A stretch of DNA of 64,000 bases from an uncultured delta proteobacterium (GTDB lineage Bacteria > Desulfobacterota > Binatia > UBA9968). The translations under genes were made by a program, and so were the position numbers. The DNA lies in the NCBI GenBank assembly GCA_963727625.1, contig CAVSHR010000005.1, forward strand, positions 416,001 through 480,000, read 5' to 3'. Positions 7,158 to 64,000 of the stretch are shown here, in pieces. How positions within the stretch are numbered: the first letter of the stretch is position 1; every line of letters begins with the position of its first letter. Under the pieces are notes generated by a model, which saw only the letters and a list, made by a program, of their open reading frames with translations, was not told the DNA's origin and searched no databases.

Positions 7158-7361
7158 TTTTCAAGAGTTGGCGGATTTTACCTTTGACGCGCTGCGATTG
7201 CGAGGCTTGGCGATTCATTTGCCCGTGCCACGTCACGTCGAAAAGATTTCTCCGAACTGGAAAAGACCTATAACGGTTGCGCGGTGTTTACCTTTGAAGT
7301 TATAGTCCGAAAACAATTCGGCGCAATCGCCGCCGTCAGCTCTGTAATTCCGAGGTGCACG

Positions 7362-8606
7362 ATGAAACCGGTACAACTTTTCTGCTGGCATTTCATGGCC
7401 TATCCCTATCTCGACAAAGATTTCGATGAAAAGGAATACACCGGCTGGGTCACCGTGCCCAACCGTCTATGGGACAACCGCAAGGCGCGCGGCCTGTACC
7501 AGGAGTATATCGACCAGCTTGCCTACGCCGATGAGCTCGGTTTCGACGGCATGGTGTTGAACGAGCATCACCAGAATATTTACGGTTTGATGCCCTCGCC
7601 CAACCTGATCGCCGCGGCGCTCTCTCAATGCACCTCCCGGGGCAAGATCGTCATCCTCGGCAACCTGTTGCCGCTGCATTTGAATCCAATGCGCGTCGCC
7701 GAAGAGTACGCCATGCTCGACCAGATGAGCGACGGTCGGCTCATCGCCGGATTTGCCCCCGGCGGTGGGCCGGAAACCTTCAACTACGACGTCCCATCGG
7801 CCAACAGCCGGGAAAAATTCTGGGAAGCCGCCGACCTGATCGTGCGCTCCTGGACCGAAGACGGGCCCTTCGCCCACGAAGGCCGGTATTTTCCGCTGCG
7901 CTATGTGAATCTCTGGCCAAAACCGCTGCAGAAACCGTTTCCGCCGGTGTGGATTCCCGGCTCGCGCAGCCCATCCACCATGACCGAAGTGGCCAAACGC
8001 GGTTATTGTTATTTTCTCTCCTCGCGCAGCCACGGTGGAGAGACCCATCGAGCGCAACAAGAATTCGCCGCCGTGCTAGAAAAACATGGTGACAAGTACC
8101 ACCCGTTCCGCTTCGGCATTTTGATGTCCACCTACGTCGCCGAAACCGATCAACAAGCGCGCGAAGAGTGCGAGGAAGGCGTGTGGTATTTCCTGAAGAA
8201 TTGTCTCAAAGGCCATCTCCGCCGGGTCGGCCGCCAACTTACCTACGGCCCAGGGGTTCCGTATATTCCCGCCGCCGCCTGGCGCGAATATCTTAAGCAC
8301 TACAAACCCGGCCAAAAACTCTTGGGCGACGTCGACAACTGGGAGGAACTGGAAGCGTCTCAATCGATCATCGTCGGCAGCCCAGAAACCGTCACGCGGC
8401 GCATTCAAAATCTCATCGAGAAGGCCAAAGTCGGCAATTTGTTGATTCAATTCCAGCTCGGCAACATGCCCAACCACCTGGCGCGGAAAAGCATGAAGCT
8501 CTTCGCCGAAAAAGTCGCGCCGGCGCTGCGCGATGCCTCTTTGACCCAGTTCACCAAAGAGTATCCCGGTGTCAATCTTGAACAAGCTGCGGAGGCGATC
8601 CATTGA
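7362..8606 (+). CDS. LLM-class (luciferase-like) flavin-dependent monooxygenase
   Basis: ADELGFDGMVLNEHH, PMRVAEEYAMLDQMSDGRL, WPKPLQKP, IVGSPETV; GAGG RBS before ATG 7362. Confidence 0.92.
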   Translation: MKPVQLFCWHFMAYPYLDKDFDEKEYTGWVTVPNRLWDNRKARGLYQEYIDQLAYADELGFDGMVLNEHHQNIYGLMPSPNLIAAALSQCTSRGKIVILGNLLPLHLNPMRVAEEYAMLDQMSDGRLIAGFAPGGGPETFNYDVPSANSREKFWEAADLIVRSWTEDGPFAHEGRYFPLRYVNLWPKPLQKPFPPVWIPGSRSPSTMTEVAKRGYCYFLSSRSHGGETHRAQQEFAAVLEKHGDKYHPFRFGILMSTYVAETDQQAREECEEGVWYFLKNCLKGHLRRVGRQLTYGPGVPYIPAAAWREYLKHYKPGQKLLGDVDNWEELEASQSIIVGSPETVTRRIQNLIEKAKVGNLLIQFQLGNMPNHLARKSMKLFAEKVAPALRDASLTQFTKEYPGVNLEQAAEAIH

Positions 8607-56819: not shown

Positions 56820-57105
56820 TGCTAAAGTTTTCCTTATGGGCCTAAAAACGATATAAAAATGCACACATGCTCCGATCGATTCTTTTGCCAAACTGCCCCA
56901 ATTGCGCCCATGGATAGAAGAGCGGGTCTTTTCGCCCGTGCCACTGACCGATAGAGGAAATGGGGAAAACTTGTTATAGACGACGCAATCGGCGGGGAAA
57001 CAGTCGGTCGCAACCCAAGTTCAAGCGCCGACTGGCAAAACCCAATCGGGCTGCCCGCCGGCTCAGTGTCATTTGAAGACGGAGTGATCAACCAGGAGGA
57101 AAATC

Positions 57106-57921
57106 ATGGCGCAACATATTCACGGACCGCTTTACTACGAACGGATGGGACGCACCGGGCCGGTGATCGCGTTTGTTCATCCCAACCCGATGGATCAGTC
57201 ATGCTGGATTTTTCAGATGGCGCACCTGTCGACCTGGTACCGCTGCATCGCTATCGACATTCCCGGCTACGGGCGCTCGCCCAAGGCGGATGCCGGGCTG
57301 ACGATGGCCGACATGGCCCAGGCTTGTTGGGAAGCGATCGACGAAGCGGCCCCGGGCGAGCGCGCGATATTGGTCGGCTGTTCGGTGGGCTCCTCGCTGG
57401 CGCCGCACATGTACCACCAGCGCCCCAACCAAACCGCCGCCCTGGTGCTCTCGGGCACGGGCTACAACCCCAACAAGGAATTCACCAAGGGGCGGATCGA
57501 GAATTACACCACCAACGGCATAGACTATCGCTGGGCCTACACGTTCGAGGATTTGAGCGCGTCGTTTCGCACCACGCCGATGGCGCACTTCTTCGCCAAC
57601 CTTTTTACCGAGCGCAACCAGCACGCCGACGTGGAGACGATCATCCACCAGTTCAAAGCGCTGGCCCAGCCCTATCCCGAAGGCCATCACGAGCGCATCG
57701 CCTGCCCGACGATCATCCTGACCGGGAGCGAGGACAACAGCCATCAACGGGCCTTTGCGCTCCAAAAGCTCATACCGAAATGCGAGCTAAGAACCTTGCC
57801 CGGCGCCGGCCACGCCTGCCAGATCGAGCAGCCCTGGCTGTTCAACCGCTTCATGATCGAGTTTCTCGACAAGCACGGCCTGTTCCCGGGCGCCGCCAAA
57901 CCTGCGCGGACTATTGTCTAA
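57106..57921 (+). CDS. Alpha/beta hydrolase
   Basis: AGGAGG RBS; DIPGYGRS, GCSVG, GSED, GAGHACQIEQP. Confidence 0.9.
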   Translation: MAQHIHGPLYYERMGRTGPVIAFVHPNPMDQSCWIFQMAHLSTWYRCIAIDIPGYGRSPKADAGLTMADMAQACWEAIDEAAPGERAILVGCSVGSSLAPHMYHQRPNQTAALVLSGTGYNPNKEFTKGRIENYTTNGIDYRWAYTFEDLSASFRTTPMAHFFANLFTERNQHADVETIIHQFKALAQPYPEGHHERIACPTIILTGSEDNSHQRAFALQKLIPKCELRTLPGAGHACQIEQPWLFNRFMIEFLDKHGLFPGAAKPARTIV

Positions 57922-57964
57922 AATCCGGACCACCGTCGGCCCTTCAAAGCAATGATATAAGATT

Positions 57965-57987
57965 TTCCTATATCACTGATATAGGAA
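57965..57987. promoter_or_regulatory. Perfect AT-rich palindrome (operator-like) upstream of the PLD gene
   Basis: TTCCTATATCA-C-TGATATAGGAA, extendable by flanking TATAA/TTATA. Confidence 0.55.
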
Positions 57988-58114
57988 TTTTATATTGGAC
58001 GCGCTGCTGAATTGGCGATAAAAATCGGAGTCGAAACGGTCGCGAGGGAACGGCGCGACGGGAACCACCAGGAAGGGTTTAGATAAGTTCCACGGAATGC
58101 ATGGGGAGACGGCC

Positions 58115-59836
58115 ATGGCAGGTGAATTTCAGGTCACGGGTCACAATAACGCCGCTTTATTCTCGCTCAAGCTTCACCGCGGTGACGGCATGGCCTTGGT
58201 CGCGATGAATTGGAAGAAAGGCAAACCGCCCGATGATTTCGTCGGCTTTGCGATCGAATACAGGGAGCCGGGCGGCGACAAGTTCTTTGCCTTGAAAAAC
58301 CGCCTTTCCTTCCCGGGACCGGGCGGCGCGGTGGACCCGAATCAGCTTTCGACGATGCGGTCGCCGATCCAAAAGTTCCGTTGGGTCCACTTCCCGCGCA
58401 ACGCCGAACTCCCCGGTGAGTTCGTCTACCGGGTCACGCCGGTCTTTATGAACGAGATGGACGAGCTGAGCCACGGCGAGCCCCAGCAAGCGGCGATCGA
58501 GCTGCGGCGCGAGACCTACCCGGGAAAGCTCAACGTCACCTTCACCCGCGGCTTCGTATCGTCGCAGGCGTTCGTGGATCGGTATGGATCGGAGGCTATT
58601 TCAACCCTCCTCCCTCGGAAGGCGGACCAAGGATTGGAGTTCGTTCCAACCCATCCCAAGACCAAGCAAGCGTTGGCATGGATGGGCTTCGAGGCGCGGA
58701 GCGCGATACTCGAAGTGCTCGATCTGGCAGTTGCCGACAAGAACGCTCAGGTCCGCGTGGTGGCCTATGATCTGAACGAACCCGATATTGTCTCGCGCCT
58801 CCAAAAGCTCGGCAAACGGCTAAAGATCATTATCGACGACGACGGCGCTCACGGAAAGCCGAAGTCGGGAGAGACAAAGGCCGCAAAGCTGCTTTCTGCC
58901 TCCGCTGGGGCGACGAATGTCAAACGGCAGCATATGGGCAAACTACAGCACAACAAGACCATTGTGGTTGACGGCCCGAAGGTAAAGGCCGCCGTGTGCG
59001 GCTCTACCAACTACTCCTGGCGCGGCTTTTTCGTGCAGAATAATAACGCCATCATTCTGCGCGGCAAGAACGCTGTTAAGATCTTCCGCGCGGGATTCGA
59101 CGATTACTGGGCGAACGACGCCGTGGTCGGCTTCGGCAAGACCGGCTCTGCGAACTGGAACAAACTCGGATTGGCCGGGATCGACGCGCAAATCGGGTTT
59201 TCTCCGCGGTTGAAGAAGAATGCGGTGTTGAAGGCAATCGCCGACGACATCGCTAAGAATACTCTCTCCAGCTTGTTCTTTTCACTCGCCTTTCTTTATC
59301 AGACCCCGGGTGCCATCCAGAACGCAGTGAAAAAAATCAAGACAGACGGCAAAATTTTCTCCTACGGCATTTCTGACCATAAGGTCAAAAAGCTTATTGG
59401 CGTCGCCCTGCAGAAGCCCAACGGCAAAGTCACACTGGTTCAACCGGCAGCGCTGAGAAAAAATGTTCCCGAGCCGTTCAAGTCAGAACCCACTGGTGGG
59501 GCTGGCACCCGGATGCATCACAAGTTCGTCGTCATTGATTTCGACAAGCCAACCGCGCGGGTCTACATGGGCTCTTACAACTTCTCTGCGGCAGCAGACA
59601 CCTCGAACGGGGAAAATCTGCTTCTCATCCGTGACCGCCGGATCGCGGTCTCTTACGTTGTCGAGGCGATAAGAATCTTCGACCACTACCATTTCCGCGT
59701 TGTTCAACAGGACGCGAAGAAGGTCAGGAAGAAGCTCCAATTAGCGAAGCCCCCGCGCAAGGCCGGCGAAAAACCCTGGTGGGCCGAGGACTTTACGAAT
59801 CCACGGAAAATTCTCGATCGAAAACTCTTCGCGTAG
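58115..59836 (+). CDS. Phospholipase D-superfamily protein with two HKD motifs
   Basis: GGAG RBS; HNKTIVVD...GSTNYS and HHKFVVID...GSYNFS; no signal peptide. Confidence 0.9.
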   Translation: MAGEFQVTGHNNAALFSLKLHRGDGMALVAMNWKKGKPPDDFVGFAIEYREPGGDKFFALKNRLSFPGPGGAVDPNQLSTMRSPIQKFRWVHFPRNAELPGEFVYRVTPVFMNEMDELSHGEPQQAAIELRRETYPGKLNVTFTRGFVSSQAFVDRYGSEAISTLLPRKADQGLEFVPTHPKTKQALAWMGFEARSAILEVLDLAVADKNAQVRVVAYDLNEPDIVSRLQKLGKRLKIIIDDDGAHGKPKSGETKAAKLLSASAGATNVKRQHMGKLQHNKTIVVDGPKVKAAVCGSTNYSWRGFFVQNNNAIILRGKNAVKIFRAGFDDYWANDAVVGFGKTGSANWNKLGLAGIDAQIGFSPRLKKNAVLKAIADDIAKNTLSSLFFSLAFLYQTPGAIQNAVKKIKTDGKIFSYGISDHKVKKLIGVALQKPNGKVTLVQPAALRKNVPEPFKSEPTGGAGTRMHHKFVVIDFDKPTARVYMGSYNFSAAADTSNGENLLLIRDRRIAVSYVVEAIRIFDHYHFRVVQQDAKKVRKKLQLAKPPRKAGEKPWWAEDFTNPRKILDRKLFA

Positions 59837-59974
59837 GTAGTGGATGAGATTTATTGAAACTACTTTGACAATGACATGATTGGAATGGATCTATTCGCCC
59901 GCGCACCAACTTTGGCGCAAGTCGTCGTGGCCGAGTCGCTTGCGCAATCTATCCAGCCAGAACCTAGCTACCAC

Positions 59975-60000
59975 CCGGAAATGCTCTCTGACCCCAATTA
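59975..60000 (+). repeat. TCTGACCCC junction motif, copy 1
   Basis: ccggaaatgctctctgaccccaatta; 22/26 identical to 60146-60171. Confidence 0.7.
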
Positions 60001-60145
60001 TTGTCTCTGAGAATGAAATTTAGCAAGGGACGTAACGAGGACGGATTGGTCTAATAAACGTTGCAGCTACAAGTGGAAGCGATAACGGGACGATGATGGC
60101 TGGGTGAAACGGACGGCCGACCAAAACAAACTGCAACGGTTTTAA

Positions 60146-60171
60146 CCGAAAATGTTCTCTGACCCCGATTT
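60146..60171 (+). repeat. TCTGACCCC junction motif, copy 2
   Basis: ccgaaaatgttctctgaccccgattt; contains the ATG of ORF 60152. Confidence 0.7.
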
Positions 60172-60547
60172 TTCGCCGATTTTTCAGGCGCCTACGGGAC
60201 TTGCCGGCAGCGTCGGCAACCGCATGCATCACAAGTTCGTCGTCATCGATTTCGACAAGCCGAGCGCGCGGGTTTATCTCGGCTCGTACAACTTCTCCTC
60301 GCCAGCGGATATCAAAAACGGAGAAAACCTGCTTCTCATCCGCGACCGCCGGATCGCAGTCTCCTACACCATCGAAGCGTTGCGCCTCTTCGACCACTAC
60401 CACTTTCGCGTCATTCAAGAAGAGGCCAAGAAAGTCAAAAAGAAACTCACCCTCGCCAAGCCCGCGCGAAATCCGGGCGAAGTGCCCTGGTGGGCCGAGA
60501 ACTTTACTGATCCGCGGAAATTTTTCGATCGTACACTGTTCGCGTAG
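60152..60547 (+). pseudogene. Orphan C-terminal module of a paralogous PLD (single HKD)
   Basis: Hand alignment gives 84/108 identical residues to the end of 58115-59836; frame open, N-terminal ~80% missing. Confidence 0.85.
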
Positions 60548-60670
60548 ATCATGGATCGAAGTTTATTGTAGCGGTTTTGACGAAGTCACGAATAGAAACG
60601 TCACTACTGGCGTCGCCTCTTGCCTTGCGACAATGTGTGACTGCAAGACCTGACCCGAAATCCTCTCCCG

Positions 60671-61336
60671 CTACTCGCCGCACACAACATGTGGAATTTT
60701 CCGTTCGTTAGCCGTGATTGTTTTCGCGAAGGTCAAGGTGCTCGTTGGAATTTTTTCAGAGAATTTGCGGAACACTGTGTTGTAGAAGTTTCTTAAAATG
60801 AAACCTCCGAACGCGAGCGGACTAAGCGGGGAACAGACGGGTATTCGGCAATTCTCATACTGGCCAAGCGTTAAGTGGGAATATGGGTGATGAACATCCA
60901 CGAACTTCGCCGGGTCAGCACTGTAATCGAAACGTACAGGGAAAGCAACGATATTTCTAGCGCTGACATCCGCGTAAATCTCATCTTCTAAATAAGTTTC
61001 GGGGTCATTCTGAAAATGCTCAAGGTCAGGCGACGGGAAATATGAAAGTGAATGCTCGTTTATTATTCCACCTCGAAACCGGTAGCGGAGGGAAATCAAC
61101 GCTCCATCAAGCATCTTGAAATTAAAGCACCGTGCTTTCTCCAGCTCACGATAGATTTCGCGGTATGCCACATTCTTTAATGCGACGCTCATTCCTGCGG
61201 CGTTACTCACGGTAATCTCGAATGCCGCATTGCTACGACCGCGCGTCGCTGGAAAATTTTGTTCATTCGAAAGGCTTAATCCAACGATCGCTTCCGTGAG
61301 ATCTTTGATTTGCTTAAGTGTTTGCTGAGGTGTCAT
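60671..61336 (-). CDS. DUF2290-family protein
   Basis: FKMLDGALI, YFPSP, PVRFDY, HPYSHLTLGQYENCRIPV; ATGA-coupled to the helicase. Confidence 0.85.
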   Translation of the reverse strand: MTPQQTLKQIKDLTEAIVGLSLSNEQNFPATRGRSNAAFEITVSNAAGMSVALKNVAYREIYRELEKARCFNFKMLDGALISLRYRFRGGIINEHSLSYFPSPDLEHFQNDPETYLEDEIYADVSARNIVAFPVRFDYSADPAKFVDVHHPYSHLTLGQYENCRIPVCSPLSPLAFGGFILRNFYNTVFRKFSEKIPTSTLTFAKTITANERKIPHVVCGE

Positions 61337-62482
61337 TTACGCCGAGATTTGGATTTCTTAGCCAGAAATGTCTGAAGTTTCTTCACGAGATTTTCAGGGT
61401 AATCCTCTATAAAACTTTCACCCGATTCCAATGACGCGATAATGTCTGCAAAGTTGTTTCTCCTTTTCGCGCTTCGGTCTAGTTCCGCTTTCGACATATC
61501 ACGGTTTACGGTCTTCATTGTCTTACGCTCGGCCTCTGTCGGATAGCGGAAATGTAGCGCGAAATTCTCTGCCTTCGCCTTGTCGAATTCCTCCTTCAGA
61601 GCGGACATTGCCTTTCCAATCCCGAGAACCCGAACCCACGCTTTAGAGCGCGTAATCGCTGTAAAAAGACGGTTTCGGACGAGGGCAACATCCCGTGGCG
61701 AGAATGCACCAAAGCAGTCGTGAGCGTTGATCACGTAGACCATAGCCGCCTCATTGCCTTTCGCTCGAAATATACCAGTGAAGGTAACCGTCCCCGGCTC
61801 AGTGAAAACATCGGCAATCGTCGTCACGCCAGCAAGATTCGAGTTTATCCCCATCTGCATCAGCGCCCGCCGCGCATCGCCGACTGCATCTTTCGTTTTA
61901 AGCGGATCGGGATTGATGACAACAATATCGTCTGGAATGAGCTCATCGTCGGTCAGATTCCGTTTGATCTCGGCTGCGAGCCATGCAGTTTGCGCCTCCG
62001 CCGTCTCGAAGATCTGGAACTGAATCAAATCTTCGATTGGCGAGTGCTTCTCGAGGAATTCCGGGCTGGATTTTGGTGTGCGACTGAGCCTAACGAGCTC
62101 ACCGTCCTCTATGTCTCCATTGTCCTCTTCATAACCAATATCGAACCAAAGGTTCTTGTTCTCGAAAATTTGGACAAGGCCCTTCTTGCGATAAATCCCA
62201 AATCCAAGAGCATGAGCCGTCGATAAAACTGGTCTGGAGTTGCGATAGCAAGTGTCAAGGATAATATCTTGCTTGGGTTTCCCTATTTCAGAGGGGTGAA
62301 TAATTACCCGTGGCGTTCCATCCGTGCTTTTGCCGAAGATTTCTTCGACCGGTGGAAGAGATCTATTCCCAAGATTCTGCAACTCGTCGTATGCATACAC
62401 TAGGCGTTTTGGATCCTTGAGATATTCGTAACAGAGTAACAAGAAATTCGGTGCAAAATCCTGCGCTTCATCAACTAGGATA

Positions 62483-63640
62483 TACATCCGCGTATAAATA
62501 AAGGGACATTATGGTTAACAAAAAGAGAGGAGAGATGGGCGGATCAGTTCTGGATAAGATTGCATTTCTCCGAAGACGCGGGCCAAGGTGGTGACGAGTT
62601 CGGCTTGGGTGGCAAAGTAGCGATTGTGGGTTCCGTTCTTTCGGGTGTATTGCCATAGTCGCTCGGTGGGGTTGAACTCCGGCGAGTAGGGTGGCAGTTG
62701 ATGCACCTCCAACCAGTGGCGGTTGGATCGGAACCAGTTCCAAACGCCGGCATCCTTGTGATACGAGGCGTTGTCTTGAATCAGAATCGCTCCACGGCGG
62801 CGGTAGTGGAGGGCCAGTTGATGGAGGAATGCCAAGTACGTGGAAGCATTGAAAACGGCATCTTGCTGGTAATGGAAGCGGGCCTGCCAGAGTTCGATGG
62901 CGGCGAGGATCTTGACGCTCTTACGCTCGCCAGTGACTGGGACCTGCGGCGGCCGGCCGATCCGACTCCAGGTGGCGTGCAGCGTGGAGTCCTGCCGGAA
63001 GCTCGCTTCGTCGGTGAAGATCAGCGCCCGGTTTTCTCTTTGGGCTTTTTTTTAAGGTTGGGATAGGTATGCCGGTGCCAGCGATCTTGCTGGCGAGCAT
63101 CGGCGCGCGCCAGCAGACGCCGGGGACGTTGCACGGAGAAGCCCAGACCATGGAGGAACTTGCGCACATGTCCGGGATGGTAAGTGACGCTGAACTCCTC
63201 TTCGATCACCCAAGCAATCATCGGCGAGGTCCACACTCCGCTGTCCAGTCCGTAGGCCACTGGGCCACTGTCGAGAATGTCGCCAAGTTGCTTTCGCTGC
63301 GGTTCGCTCAACTGCGGCGGACGCCCGGACCGATACCCCTCCAGAAGACCATCGACTCCGTATGCTTGATACCGCGACAACCACTCCGACACCTTGGAGC
63401 GCGGCGCTTTGAGAATCTCCGCCAACTCGCCGCTGGTCCGGCCTTCCGCATTCAACACCACGGCTTGCAGCCGCTTCGCCACCCGGTAAGCGCCAACTCG
63501 CTCTGCCTCCTTACTCAGGCGGACCAGCCGGCTAACGCTCTTGGGGTGCAACCGCAACAATCGAGCACGCATGGCATCTCCTCCTGTGAGGAGTATGCCA
63601 CAGAAAACATACTATGTCCCTTTATTTATACGCGGTAGTA
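62483..63640 (-). mobile_element. IS630-family insertion sequence (1158 bp)
   Basis: 27-bp TIRs TAC(AT/TA)CCGCGTATAAATAAAGGGACAT; TA duplication at 62481-62482 and 63641-63642. Confidence 0.95.
62515..63572 (-). CDS. IS630 transposase, two ORFs joined by a -1 frameshift
   Basis: orfA 63021-63572 (HTH, WTSP, LGFS.QRP); A8G at 63045-63053; orfB FTDEASF, QDNASYH, YSPEFNPTE (DDE). Confidence 0.92.
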
Positions 63641-64000
63641 TAGCATCGTATTTAAGCGCGAATTTTTTCACGCCCTGAAGGGCAATGTCGCATGCCGATT
63701 CAAACGCGTTGTCGGCGCCAAACCGATTTTTTGCCGTTGCAAAATCCAAATACTCGACGCCATGGTCACGGCAGAATTCGAAGTAGATGCCAGTACGACC
63801 TATTCCGCCGGGAGCACCCCAAGCATTTAATATTCGTATTTTGTCCCAGTCCGGCTCTTCGTTCGCCTGCTCAAGCACGAACGTCGTAATCAGGTTCTCG
63901 AACTGCCTTTTCAGTGACCGTGTGTTGAATGTCACGCCGATGAGCCAATCCCGGTGCTTTGCGTGCAAGTATGCGACCTTCAAAGCTAGGACGATTGTCT

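Follow-up and report, generated by a model that had tools for sequence, protein, structure and literature searches.

Orphan C-terminal modules are a feature of polymorphic toxin loci (Rhs, CdiA), which combine a 5′ homology handle, a variable toxin tip and an immunity gene. Nuc, a nuclease of only 155 aa, works as a dimer. Repetitive extragenic palindromes (REPs) typically number hundreds per genome. Gene remnants left at insertion sequence (IS) or REP scars in genomic islands comprise a truncated 3′ piece accompanied by mobile-element remains and by other broken genes. Among transposases, RAYTs and IS200-like Y1 enzymes with flanking repeats are treated in Nunvar 2010 (PMC2817692) and Bertels & Rainey 2011 (PMC3116915), and RAYTs are given as usually single-copy in PMC5581495. 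Helicase+DUF2290 is presented as a self-contained two-gene anti-phage system by Rousset et al. 2022 (PMC9122126) and is also covered in PMC10952713. Features recalling each of these systems are found in the 64 000-nt stretch of DNA considered here, called the window below, which corresponds to G000:C5:416001-480000, that is, to part of the 1.1-Mb contig C5 of the 6.6-Mb source genome G000, an uncultured delta proteobacterium of the Binatia. In the window, a complete gene of the phospholipase D (PLD) superfamily with two HKD motifs, named PLD-A, is followed by an orphan open reading frame (ORF) of 131 codons that resembles its 3′ end (Table 1). With a probability of roughly 0.8, this orphan is what remains of the 3′ end of a second PLD gene, of another lineage, that once stood in the same island; it would be an ordinary relic without function. 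Comparisons cover 89 other genomes of the host's family, 30 genus-mates, a phylum sample of 401 genomes and 5.8 billion proteins.

The orphan begins 315 nt past the PLD-A stop codon and runs in the same orientation. Its product matches PLD-A at 90 of 123 residues (BLASTP, 73%, E 3e-64) and, from RMHHK to the end, at 84 of 108; the DNA is 79% identical over 300 nt. The HKD and GSYN motifs are both unbroken. The two sequences differ by 36.3 synonymous and 31.7 non-synonymous changes (dS 0.81), and similarity runs on for ∼45–50 nt beyond both stops. As a description of the locus, the original prediction, made from the letters of the window, holds good on these points: a two-HKD PLD gene is followed by a 131-codon frame, the hand count of 84/108 was exact, the unbroken motifs and the many synonymous differences reappear in the alignment, as does the similarity put at ∼50 nt past both stops, and the two direct repeats reported as 26 bp are real (28 nt), the second one providing the ATG of the orphan. 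The ancestry given to the orphan, a divergent copy of the C-terminus of the adjoining PLD, is wrong. A second full-length paralogue, PLD-B, with 78% amino acid identity to PLD-A, is encoded on another contig (G000:C2:6673-8409), and the orphan matches it at 109 of 123 residues (89%) and, from RMHHK on, at 99 of 108, against 84 for its neighbour. At the DNA level, identity to PLD-B reaches 87.8% over 401 nt (window 60191-60591), with homology ending 47 nt beyond the stop codon. None of 78 further homologues exceeds 80.6% identity to the orphan, and the closest full-length protein among the 5.8 billion (P0001) is 89% identical, with three of the orphan's odd residues in common. An exact 30-nt scan of metagenome contigs for the parent gene of the orphan gave no match. 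By these comparisons, the orphan goes back to a separate PLD-B-type gene and did not arise by divergence from the adjoining PLD-A. Separately, a public run from another study, with another habitat label, yields contig pieces nearly identical to the orphan region (60268-60584, 0–2 mismatches, ∼2x depth) and to that region alone, with no PLD-A piece at ≥90%; these pieces may represent the same relic or its full-length parent.

What survives of this second gene falls short of a domain. The orphan covers positions 79–124 of the 132 positions of the PLDc_2 profile, which amounts to roughly the final 40% of an HKD domain. It starts at the equivalent of residue ∼455 of PLD-A, whose second HKD domain spans residues ∼370–536 in the structural model, and would therefore lack the elements of residues 370–442, namely the first four to five strands and two helices. 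Judged as an autonomous Nuc-like HKD domain, it is incomplete. No Shine–Dalgarno sequence precedes ATG 60152, unlike the situation in PLD-A and PLD-B, and no promoter-like site is predicted for the orphan on the + strand. Two substitutions affect invariant or nearly invariant sites: an alanine replaces a proline found in 79 of 79 full-length relatives, and a phenylalanine, seen in 0 of 79, replaces an isoleucine. These features bear on the proposal that a small single-HKD protein is made from the orphan and pairs with itself or with PLD-A in the manner of Nuc. The intact HKD and the open frame speak for such a protein, and read-through transcription is possible because no terminator-like site is predicted between PLD-A and the orphan; however, Nuc aligns over a whole domain whereas the orphan offers ∼40% of one, and the missing Shine–Dalgarno sequence and the changes at family-invariant positions also disfavour expression. 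Such a protein is thus improbable.

The left edge of the orphan is a transposase scar. Repeat copies 1 and 2 (Table 1) are identical at 24 of 28 nt (86%). Their core TCTCTGACCCC occurs twice in the window, where 0.66 copies are expected, and at least two copies appear in 15 of 100 shuffles; the window count taken alone is weak evidence. Genome-wide, there are six exact copies of the core for ∼4.4 expected. Five of these six sites have an extended 22-nt context, and they are the two flanks of a transposase gene, the ends of PLD-A and PLD-B, and the orphan junction; this shows that the 28-nt repeat is non-random. The transposase gene is an intact Y1 gene of 237 codons (C4:363095-363805; Y1_Tnp PF01797, E 5.8e-12), flanked by the repeat in inverted orientation (C4 363082-363106 and 363865-363888). 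Its 3′ end together with the terminal repeat (C4:363075-363198) aligns with window 60056-60180 at 70% over 125 nt (blastn), and its last 34 residues match the remnant at 17 of 34, with an in-frame stop in the remnant (tblastn). The natural stop codon of the transposase lies within repeat copy 2, and the orphan ATG is an out-of-frame ATG of that repeat. These alignments identify repeat copy 2 as the terminal repeat of a transposase gene now degraded, and the first ∼13 codons of the orphan frame as repeat or junction sequence. Similar transposase ends are found in three other genomes of the host's family. As in RAYT systems, a Y1_Tnp gene with inverted flanking repeats coexists with scattered single repeats. 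In contrast to these systems, the 28-nt repeat is rare (five related copies in 6.6 Mb) and forms no hairpin (z +0.75), and, where RAYTs are usually single-copy, the source genome has ∼25 diverged Y1 (IS200/RAYT-like) paralogues. These paralogues are 25–43% identical to the C4 copy, are dispersed over several contigs and lie partly in near-identical tandem sets (for example, C8:236020-242281 and C9:288209-295713).

The right edge is of a different nature. The third related motif (gacctgacccg) that the original prediction placed at ∼60647 is present, but belongs to a separate element and shares with the 28-nt repeat the heptamer CTGACCC alone. It is the 3′ arm of a REP-like hairpin of ∼45 nt. 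Sequences 82–96% identical to this hairpin occur in 29 of the 89 genomes compared from the host's family, with up to four in each; by BLAST, the source genome has a single, decayed copy. In relatives the element folds into an imperfect hairpin, whereas the window copy, whose 5′ arm is decayed, does not. The 123 nt from 60548 to the DUF2290 stop at 60671, which include the decayed hairpin, are free of ORFs, and an Rfam scan of 57000-64000 with E up to 0.1 returned no match.

From these edges a course of events can be proposed. A PLD-B-type gene would have been cut at about codon 455, either by insertion of a Y1-transposase element or by recombination at its repeat, and its 5′ three-quarters would then have been lost together with most of the transposase gene. 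The complete PLD-A unit, with the same end repeat and directly upstream, would be either a later arrival that replaced the missing parts or an earlier tandem. The alternative that the original prediction had offered in second place, serial gene replacement at REP-type sites, is in essence correct on this account, with the other PLD lineage as source, a RAYT/IS200 repeat on the left and a REP-like hairpin on the right. Compared with known gene remnants at IS or REP scars, nothing essential differs; the curiosity is the complete divergent paralogue directly upstream, which mimics a duplication.

Several observations weigh against a dead remnant or against this course of events. The 131 codons are open, with HKD and GSYN unbroken. 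The ratio of non-synonymous to synonymous substitution rates (dN/dS) between orphan and PLD-B is 0.076 (26 synonymous and 9 non-synonymous changes, dS 0.48), and in the first 75 orphan codons it falls to 0.011 (19 synonymous, 1 non-synonymous). Non-synonymous changes are spread unevenly, with one in the orphan core and eight in the last 33 codons, which suggests little uniform neutral drift in the fragment; a low dN/dS would likewise be expected had purifying selection gone on acting on the fragment. C-terminal fragments of the family exist elsewhere, for example proteins of 130–132 aa on contigs of 68 and 218 kb. No full-length parent closer than 89% is available to place the changes before or after truncation. 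The order of events and the mediating role of the repeat are inferred, and in the contigs of two public runs, which provide scattered pieces only, no read or contig spans the junctions.

The low ratios lose much of their force once the age of the divergence is considered. The dN/dS check suggested by the original prediction came out low and not neutral, and is nevertheless uninformative on function, most of the orphan/PLD-B divergence necessarily predating truncation: over the same codons the two full-length genes give 0.088, and the three odd residues occur in a full-length protein, P0001. The uninterrupted frame, the unbroken HKD and the low ratio would all date back to the period before truncation. 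The numbers do establish that truncation came late compared with a dS of 0.48, which explains why the frame has stayed open. The lesson is that an open frame and a low dN/dS are not by themselves proof of function.

Related loci give no sign that orphans recur. Among the best 80 of 384 genomic matches to the PLD family, examined with flanks of up to 5 kb (72 of the 80 with ≥800 nt of downstream sequence), not one carries a further PLD fragment. The core of the 28-nt repeat and the left 48-nt palindrome described below are absent from all 80, as are DUF2290 and this helicase within 5 kb. A Y1 transposase is near PLD at a single locus, and there is no conserved PLD neighbour, the largest non-PLD cluster covering five loci. 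The homologue survey for adjacent orphans, motifs and defence genes (DUF2290/helicase) that the original prediction had called for thus yields 0 of 80 on each count. Short family proteins of 72–230 aa are numerous (561 matches), mostly on short contigs; the few on long contigs start at many and varied positions, which points to random breakage rather than to a defined module.

This absence of recurrence weighs on the idea that the orphan is a reservoir module, kept for swapping its catalytic C-terminus into the full-length gene. Besides its open frame, intact HKD and low dN/dS, such a module could draw on its position 315 nt downstream of PLD-A in the same orientation and on a DNA identity (79% over 300 nt) that could support recombination. 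The part swapped would, however, be a conserved catalytic half-domain with conservative differences (84/108) and not a variable toxin or specificity module. There is no immunity-like partner, the 5′ boundary is a transposase scar, orphans are lacking at all 80 loci and short fragments have no fixed boundary, so that a reservoir role is unlikely. With the orphan modules of polymorphic toxins, the locus has in common a 3′ fragment that follows a co-oriented full-length paralogue; it differs from them in lacking a 5′ handle, as similarity is even up to the scar, in lacking an immunity gene and in not recurring. The cassette-like hot spot keeping or exchanging PLD C-termini that the original prediction named first is not supported, given the transposase-scar edge, the partial domain, the 80 loci without orphans and the lack of a hot spot at this site in the genus-mates inspected.

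A broader version of exchange concerns whole PLD units. PLD-A and PLD-B belong to homologous units with sharp ends (window 57953-60000 versus C2 8561-6497, 76% over 2086 nt). On the right, window 59893-60000 is 86% identical to the PLD-B flank, with 35 of the last 36 nt identical, and homology stops directly after the 28-nt repeat. On the left, homology begins with a 48-nt element that is 95.7% identical over 47 nt to its counterpart at PLD-B and consists of a perfect 9-bp-stem palindrome with core CTATATCACTGATATAG and conserved flanks. Units of this kind, with the palindrome on the left and the transposase-type repeat on the right, could be exchanged at their ends; the island would then record the turnover, as cassettes, of a mobile defence family of single-gene PLD nucleases, with the orphan kept as a C-terminus donor. 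Little credence is given to this scenario. The 48-nt element has six copies with the same extended context in the source genome (window 57953-58000, C2:∼8514-8561, C4:∼7332-7380, C4:∼1095584, C4:∼1097398 and C9:∼306434-306481) and precedes PLD-A, PLD-B and genes for a papain-like protease, an HsdR-like helicase and a 216-aa protein. It is found in 0 of the 89 other genomes of the host's family. Its predicted fold is a strong hairpin (z -4.57), compatible also with a terminator-like pattern; candidate roles are those of a strain-specific operator, a mobile promoter or a terminator. An IS200/IS605-type end with the PLD unit as cargo was considered for this element and rejected, since it does not lie beside the transposase and only two of the six copies accompany the right-hand repeat.

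Two further explanations have still less to commend them. An assembly artefact merging the PLD alleles of two strains is very unlikely: the source genome has a contamination estimate of 6.3%, the junctions are unbridged in two runs and one run has orphan pieces only, all of which would suit it, but the contig measures 1.1 Mb, copies 79% alike are too different to confuse an assembler, the intervening 315 nt are unique and contain an explicable transposase remnant, and one run has exact pieces of PLD-A, orphan and helicase together. A diverged local tandem duplication of the PLD-A 3′ end, suggested by adjacency, common orientation and similarity past both stops, is practically excluded by the far greater closeness of the orphan to PLD-B (99/108 residues and 88% of nucleotides, versus 84/108 and 79% for PLD-A) and by the dS of 0.81 to PLD-A.

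Table 1. Features of the PLD island in the window (window coordinates)
Feature	Position	Strand	Basis
48-nt palindromic element, left edge of PLD-A/PLD-B homology	57953..58000	.	Unit alignment, fold
PLD-A, complete two-HKD PLD-superfamily gene, 573 aa	58115..59836	+	Pfam, model, family alignment
3′ flank common to PLD-A and PLD-B units, ends in repeat copy 1	59837..60002	+	Unit alignment
Repeat copy 1	59975-60002	+	End of PLD-A unit
IS200/RAYT-type Y1 transposase gene, 3′ remnant with in-frame stop	60058..60160	+	tblastn, blastn
Repeat copy 2, transposase terminal repeat, holds orphan ATG 60152	60146..60173	+	Repeat and genome comparison
Orphan ORF, 131 codons	60152..60547	+	3′ end of PLD-B-lineage gene from ∼60191; first ∼13 codons repeat/junction
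Decayed copy of ∼45-nt REP-like hairpin, holds third motif gacctgacccg	60608..60660	+	Matches in relatives
DUF2290 gene, Helicase+DUF2290 anti-phage system	60671..61336	-	Pfam 2.1e-50; PADLOC PDLC02999 7.8e-96
Helicase C-terminal part, profile positions 334-706 of 707	61333..62487	-	PADLOC PDLC03002 4.7e-170; UvrD_C_2
IS630-family element in helicase gene	62488..63635	-	NCBIfam transpos_IS630; DDE_3, HTH domains
Helicase N-terminal part, profile positions 218-335	63636..64000, past window end	-	PADLOC PDLC03002 2.6e-52

The surroundings of the orphan are those of a foreign island in decay. The left-flank genes (monooxygenase-like and alpha/beta hydrolase) are present in 28 of the 30 genus-mates. 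Genus-mate G049 has just 20 nt between the hydrolase gene and the gene of window-equivalent ∼65400, a secreted-protein gene, and this empty site indicates that the stretch from ∼57922 to ∼65400 (C5:∼481400) is a 7.5-kb insertion. It contains PLD, the transposase remnant, the orphan, DUF2290 and the helicase gene interrupted by IS630. A conserved hot spot after the hydrolase gene was also considered and discarded, as the site is occupied by ordinary genes for transport or metabolism in four genus-mates and is empty in one.

The defence genes of the island are themselves broken. Adjacent DUF2290 and UvrD-like helicase genes are present, as in the published system, but they are not both intact: the IS630 element breaks the helicase in two at profile position ∼334, and the N-terminal helicase ORF extends to window-equivalent 64682. 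The IS630 transposase is in two ORFs (62515-62835 and 63021-63572), and the terminal inverted repeats of the element (62474-62509 and 63614-63649) include 22 nt of perfect match. The original prediction suggested that the PLD could be a nuclease/lipase defence effector facing this helicase–DUF2290 pair. That link is not upheld, the pair being a self-contained two-gene system, here broken by IS630, that is found at 0 of 80 PLD loci, and PLD is not one of its components. Nor do the data bear out the view of the locus as the best candidate for an undescribed system.

PLD-A itself belongs to a family with distinctive traits. A longer ORF is possible from 58097; the start at 58115 is favoured by the N-terminus of the family (MxGEFQV) and by a GGGGAGA Shine–Dalgarno sequence upstream. 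The protein has two HxK(x)4D motifs with GSxN and two PLDc-type domains, as expected of the two-HKD superfamily; PLDc_2 is matched in two stretches (Pfam, E 1.4e-19), and residues H279, K281, H469, K470 and D475 and those of G-S-x-N are invariant in 44 family sequences. An AlphaFold model derived from these 44 sequences (mean predicted local distance difference test score 74.6, predicted template modelling score 0.73) comprises an N-terminal beta-sandwich (residues ∼1–130) and HKD domains at ∼190–335 and ∼370–536. Searched with Foldseek, it retrieves two-HKD PLD-superfamily structures, lipases and nucleases alike, with probability 1.00. Among solved proteins, PLD-A is closest in sequence to the nuclease Nuc (1byr, E 4.8e-6); of the curated families, NucT and DrmC (1.4e-13) come nearest, and every match falls far under the family cut-offs (for NucT, 28.7 bits versus a cut-off of 297). 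HKD motifs are common to PLD-A and the Nuc/NucT/DrmC-type nucleases, from which PLD-A differs by its 573 aa, its two HKD motifs and its additional N-terminal beta-sandwich. By its nearest sequences PLD-A would be nuclease-like; structural neighbours include lipases as well as nucleases, so that the substrate may be of either kind.

The distribution of the family is wide and irregular. More than 3575 longer proteins match, as do 384 genomic stretches, and at the best 80 loci the proteins are 54–81% identical to PLD-A and come from many phyla. In the phylum sample, only the source genome has the family (1 of 401), and four genus-mates hold other full-length versions that are 63–71% identical. 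The ESM Atlas gives generic PLD clusters only, and PADLOC contains no full-length model for the family. A solitary, patchy and cross-phylum distribution is typical of a horizontally moving accessory gene. At one of the 80 related loci, in a Nitrospira metagenome-assembled genome (L048:5001-6712), the PLD gene is split in two frames at about residue 450, perhaps by a frameshift or a sequencing error.

Collectively, the locus is best described as one of turnover at repeat and transposase scars in a decaying foreign island, and not as a module-swapping system. The orphan is of little importance as a finding; it provides an example of how a relic from another allele lineage can give the impression of a module-swapping locus when a complete paralogue lies beside it. 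Greater interest may attach to two side observations: the 48-nt palindrome, found in the source genome only and upstream of several loci, and the PLD family, which is large, unusually conserved across phyla, solitary, patchy in distribution and uncharacterised.

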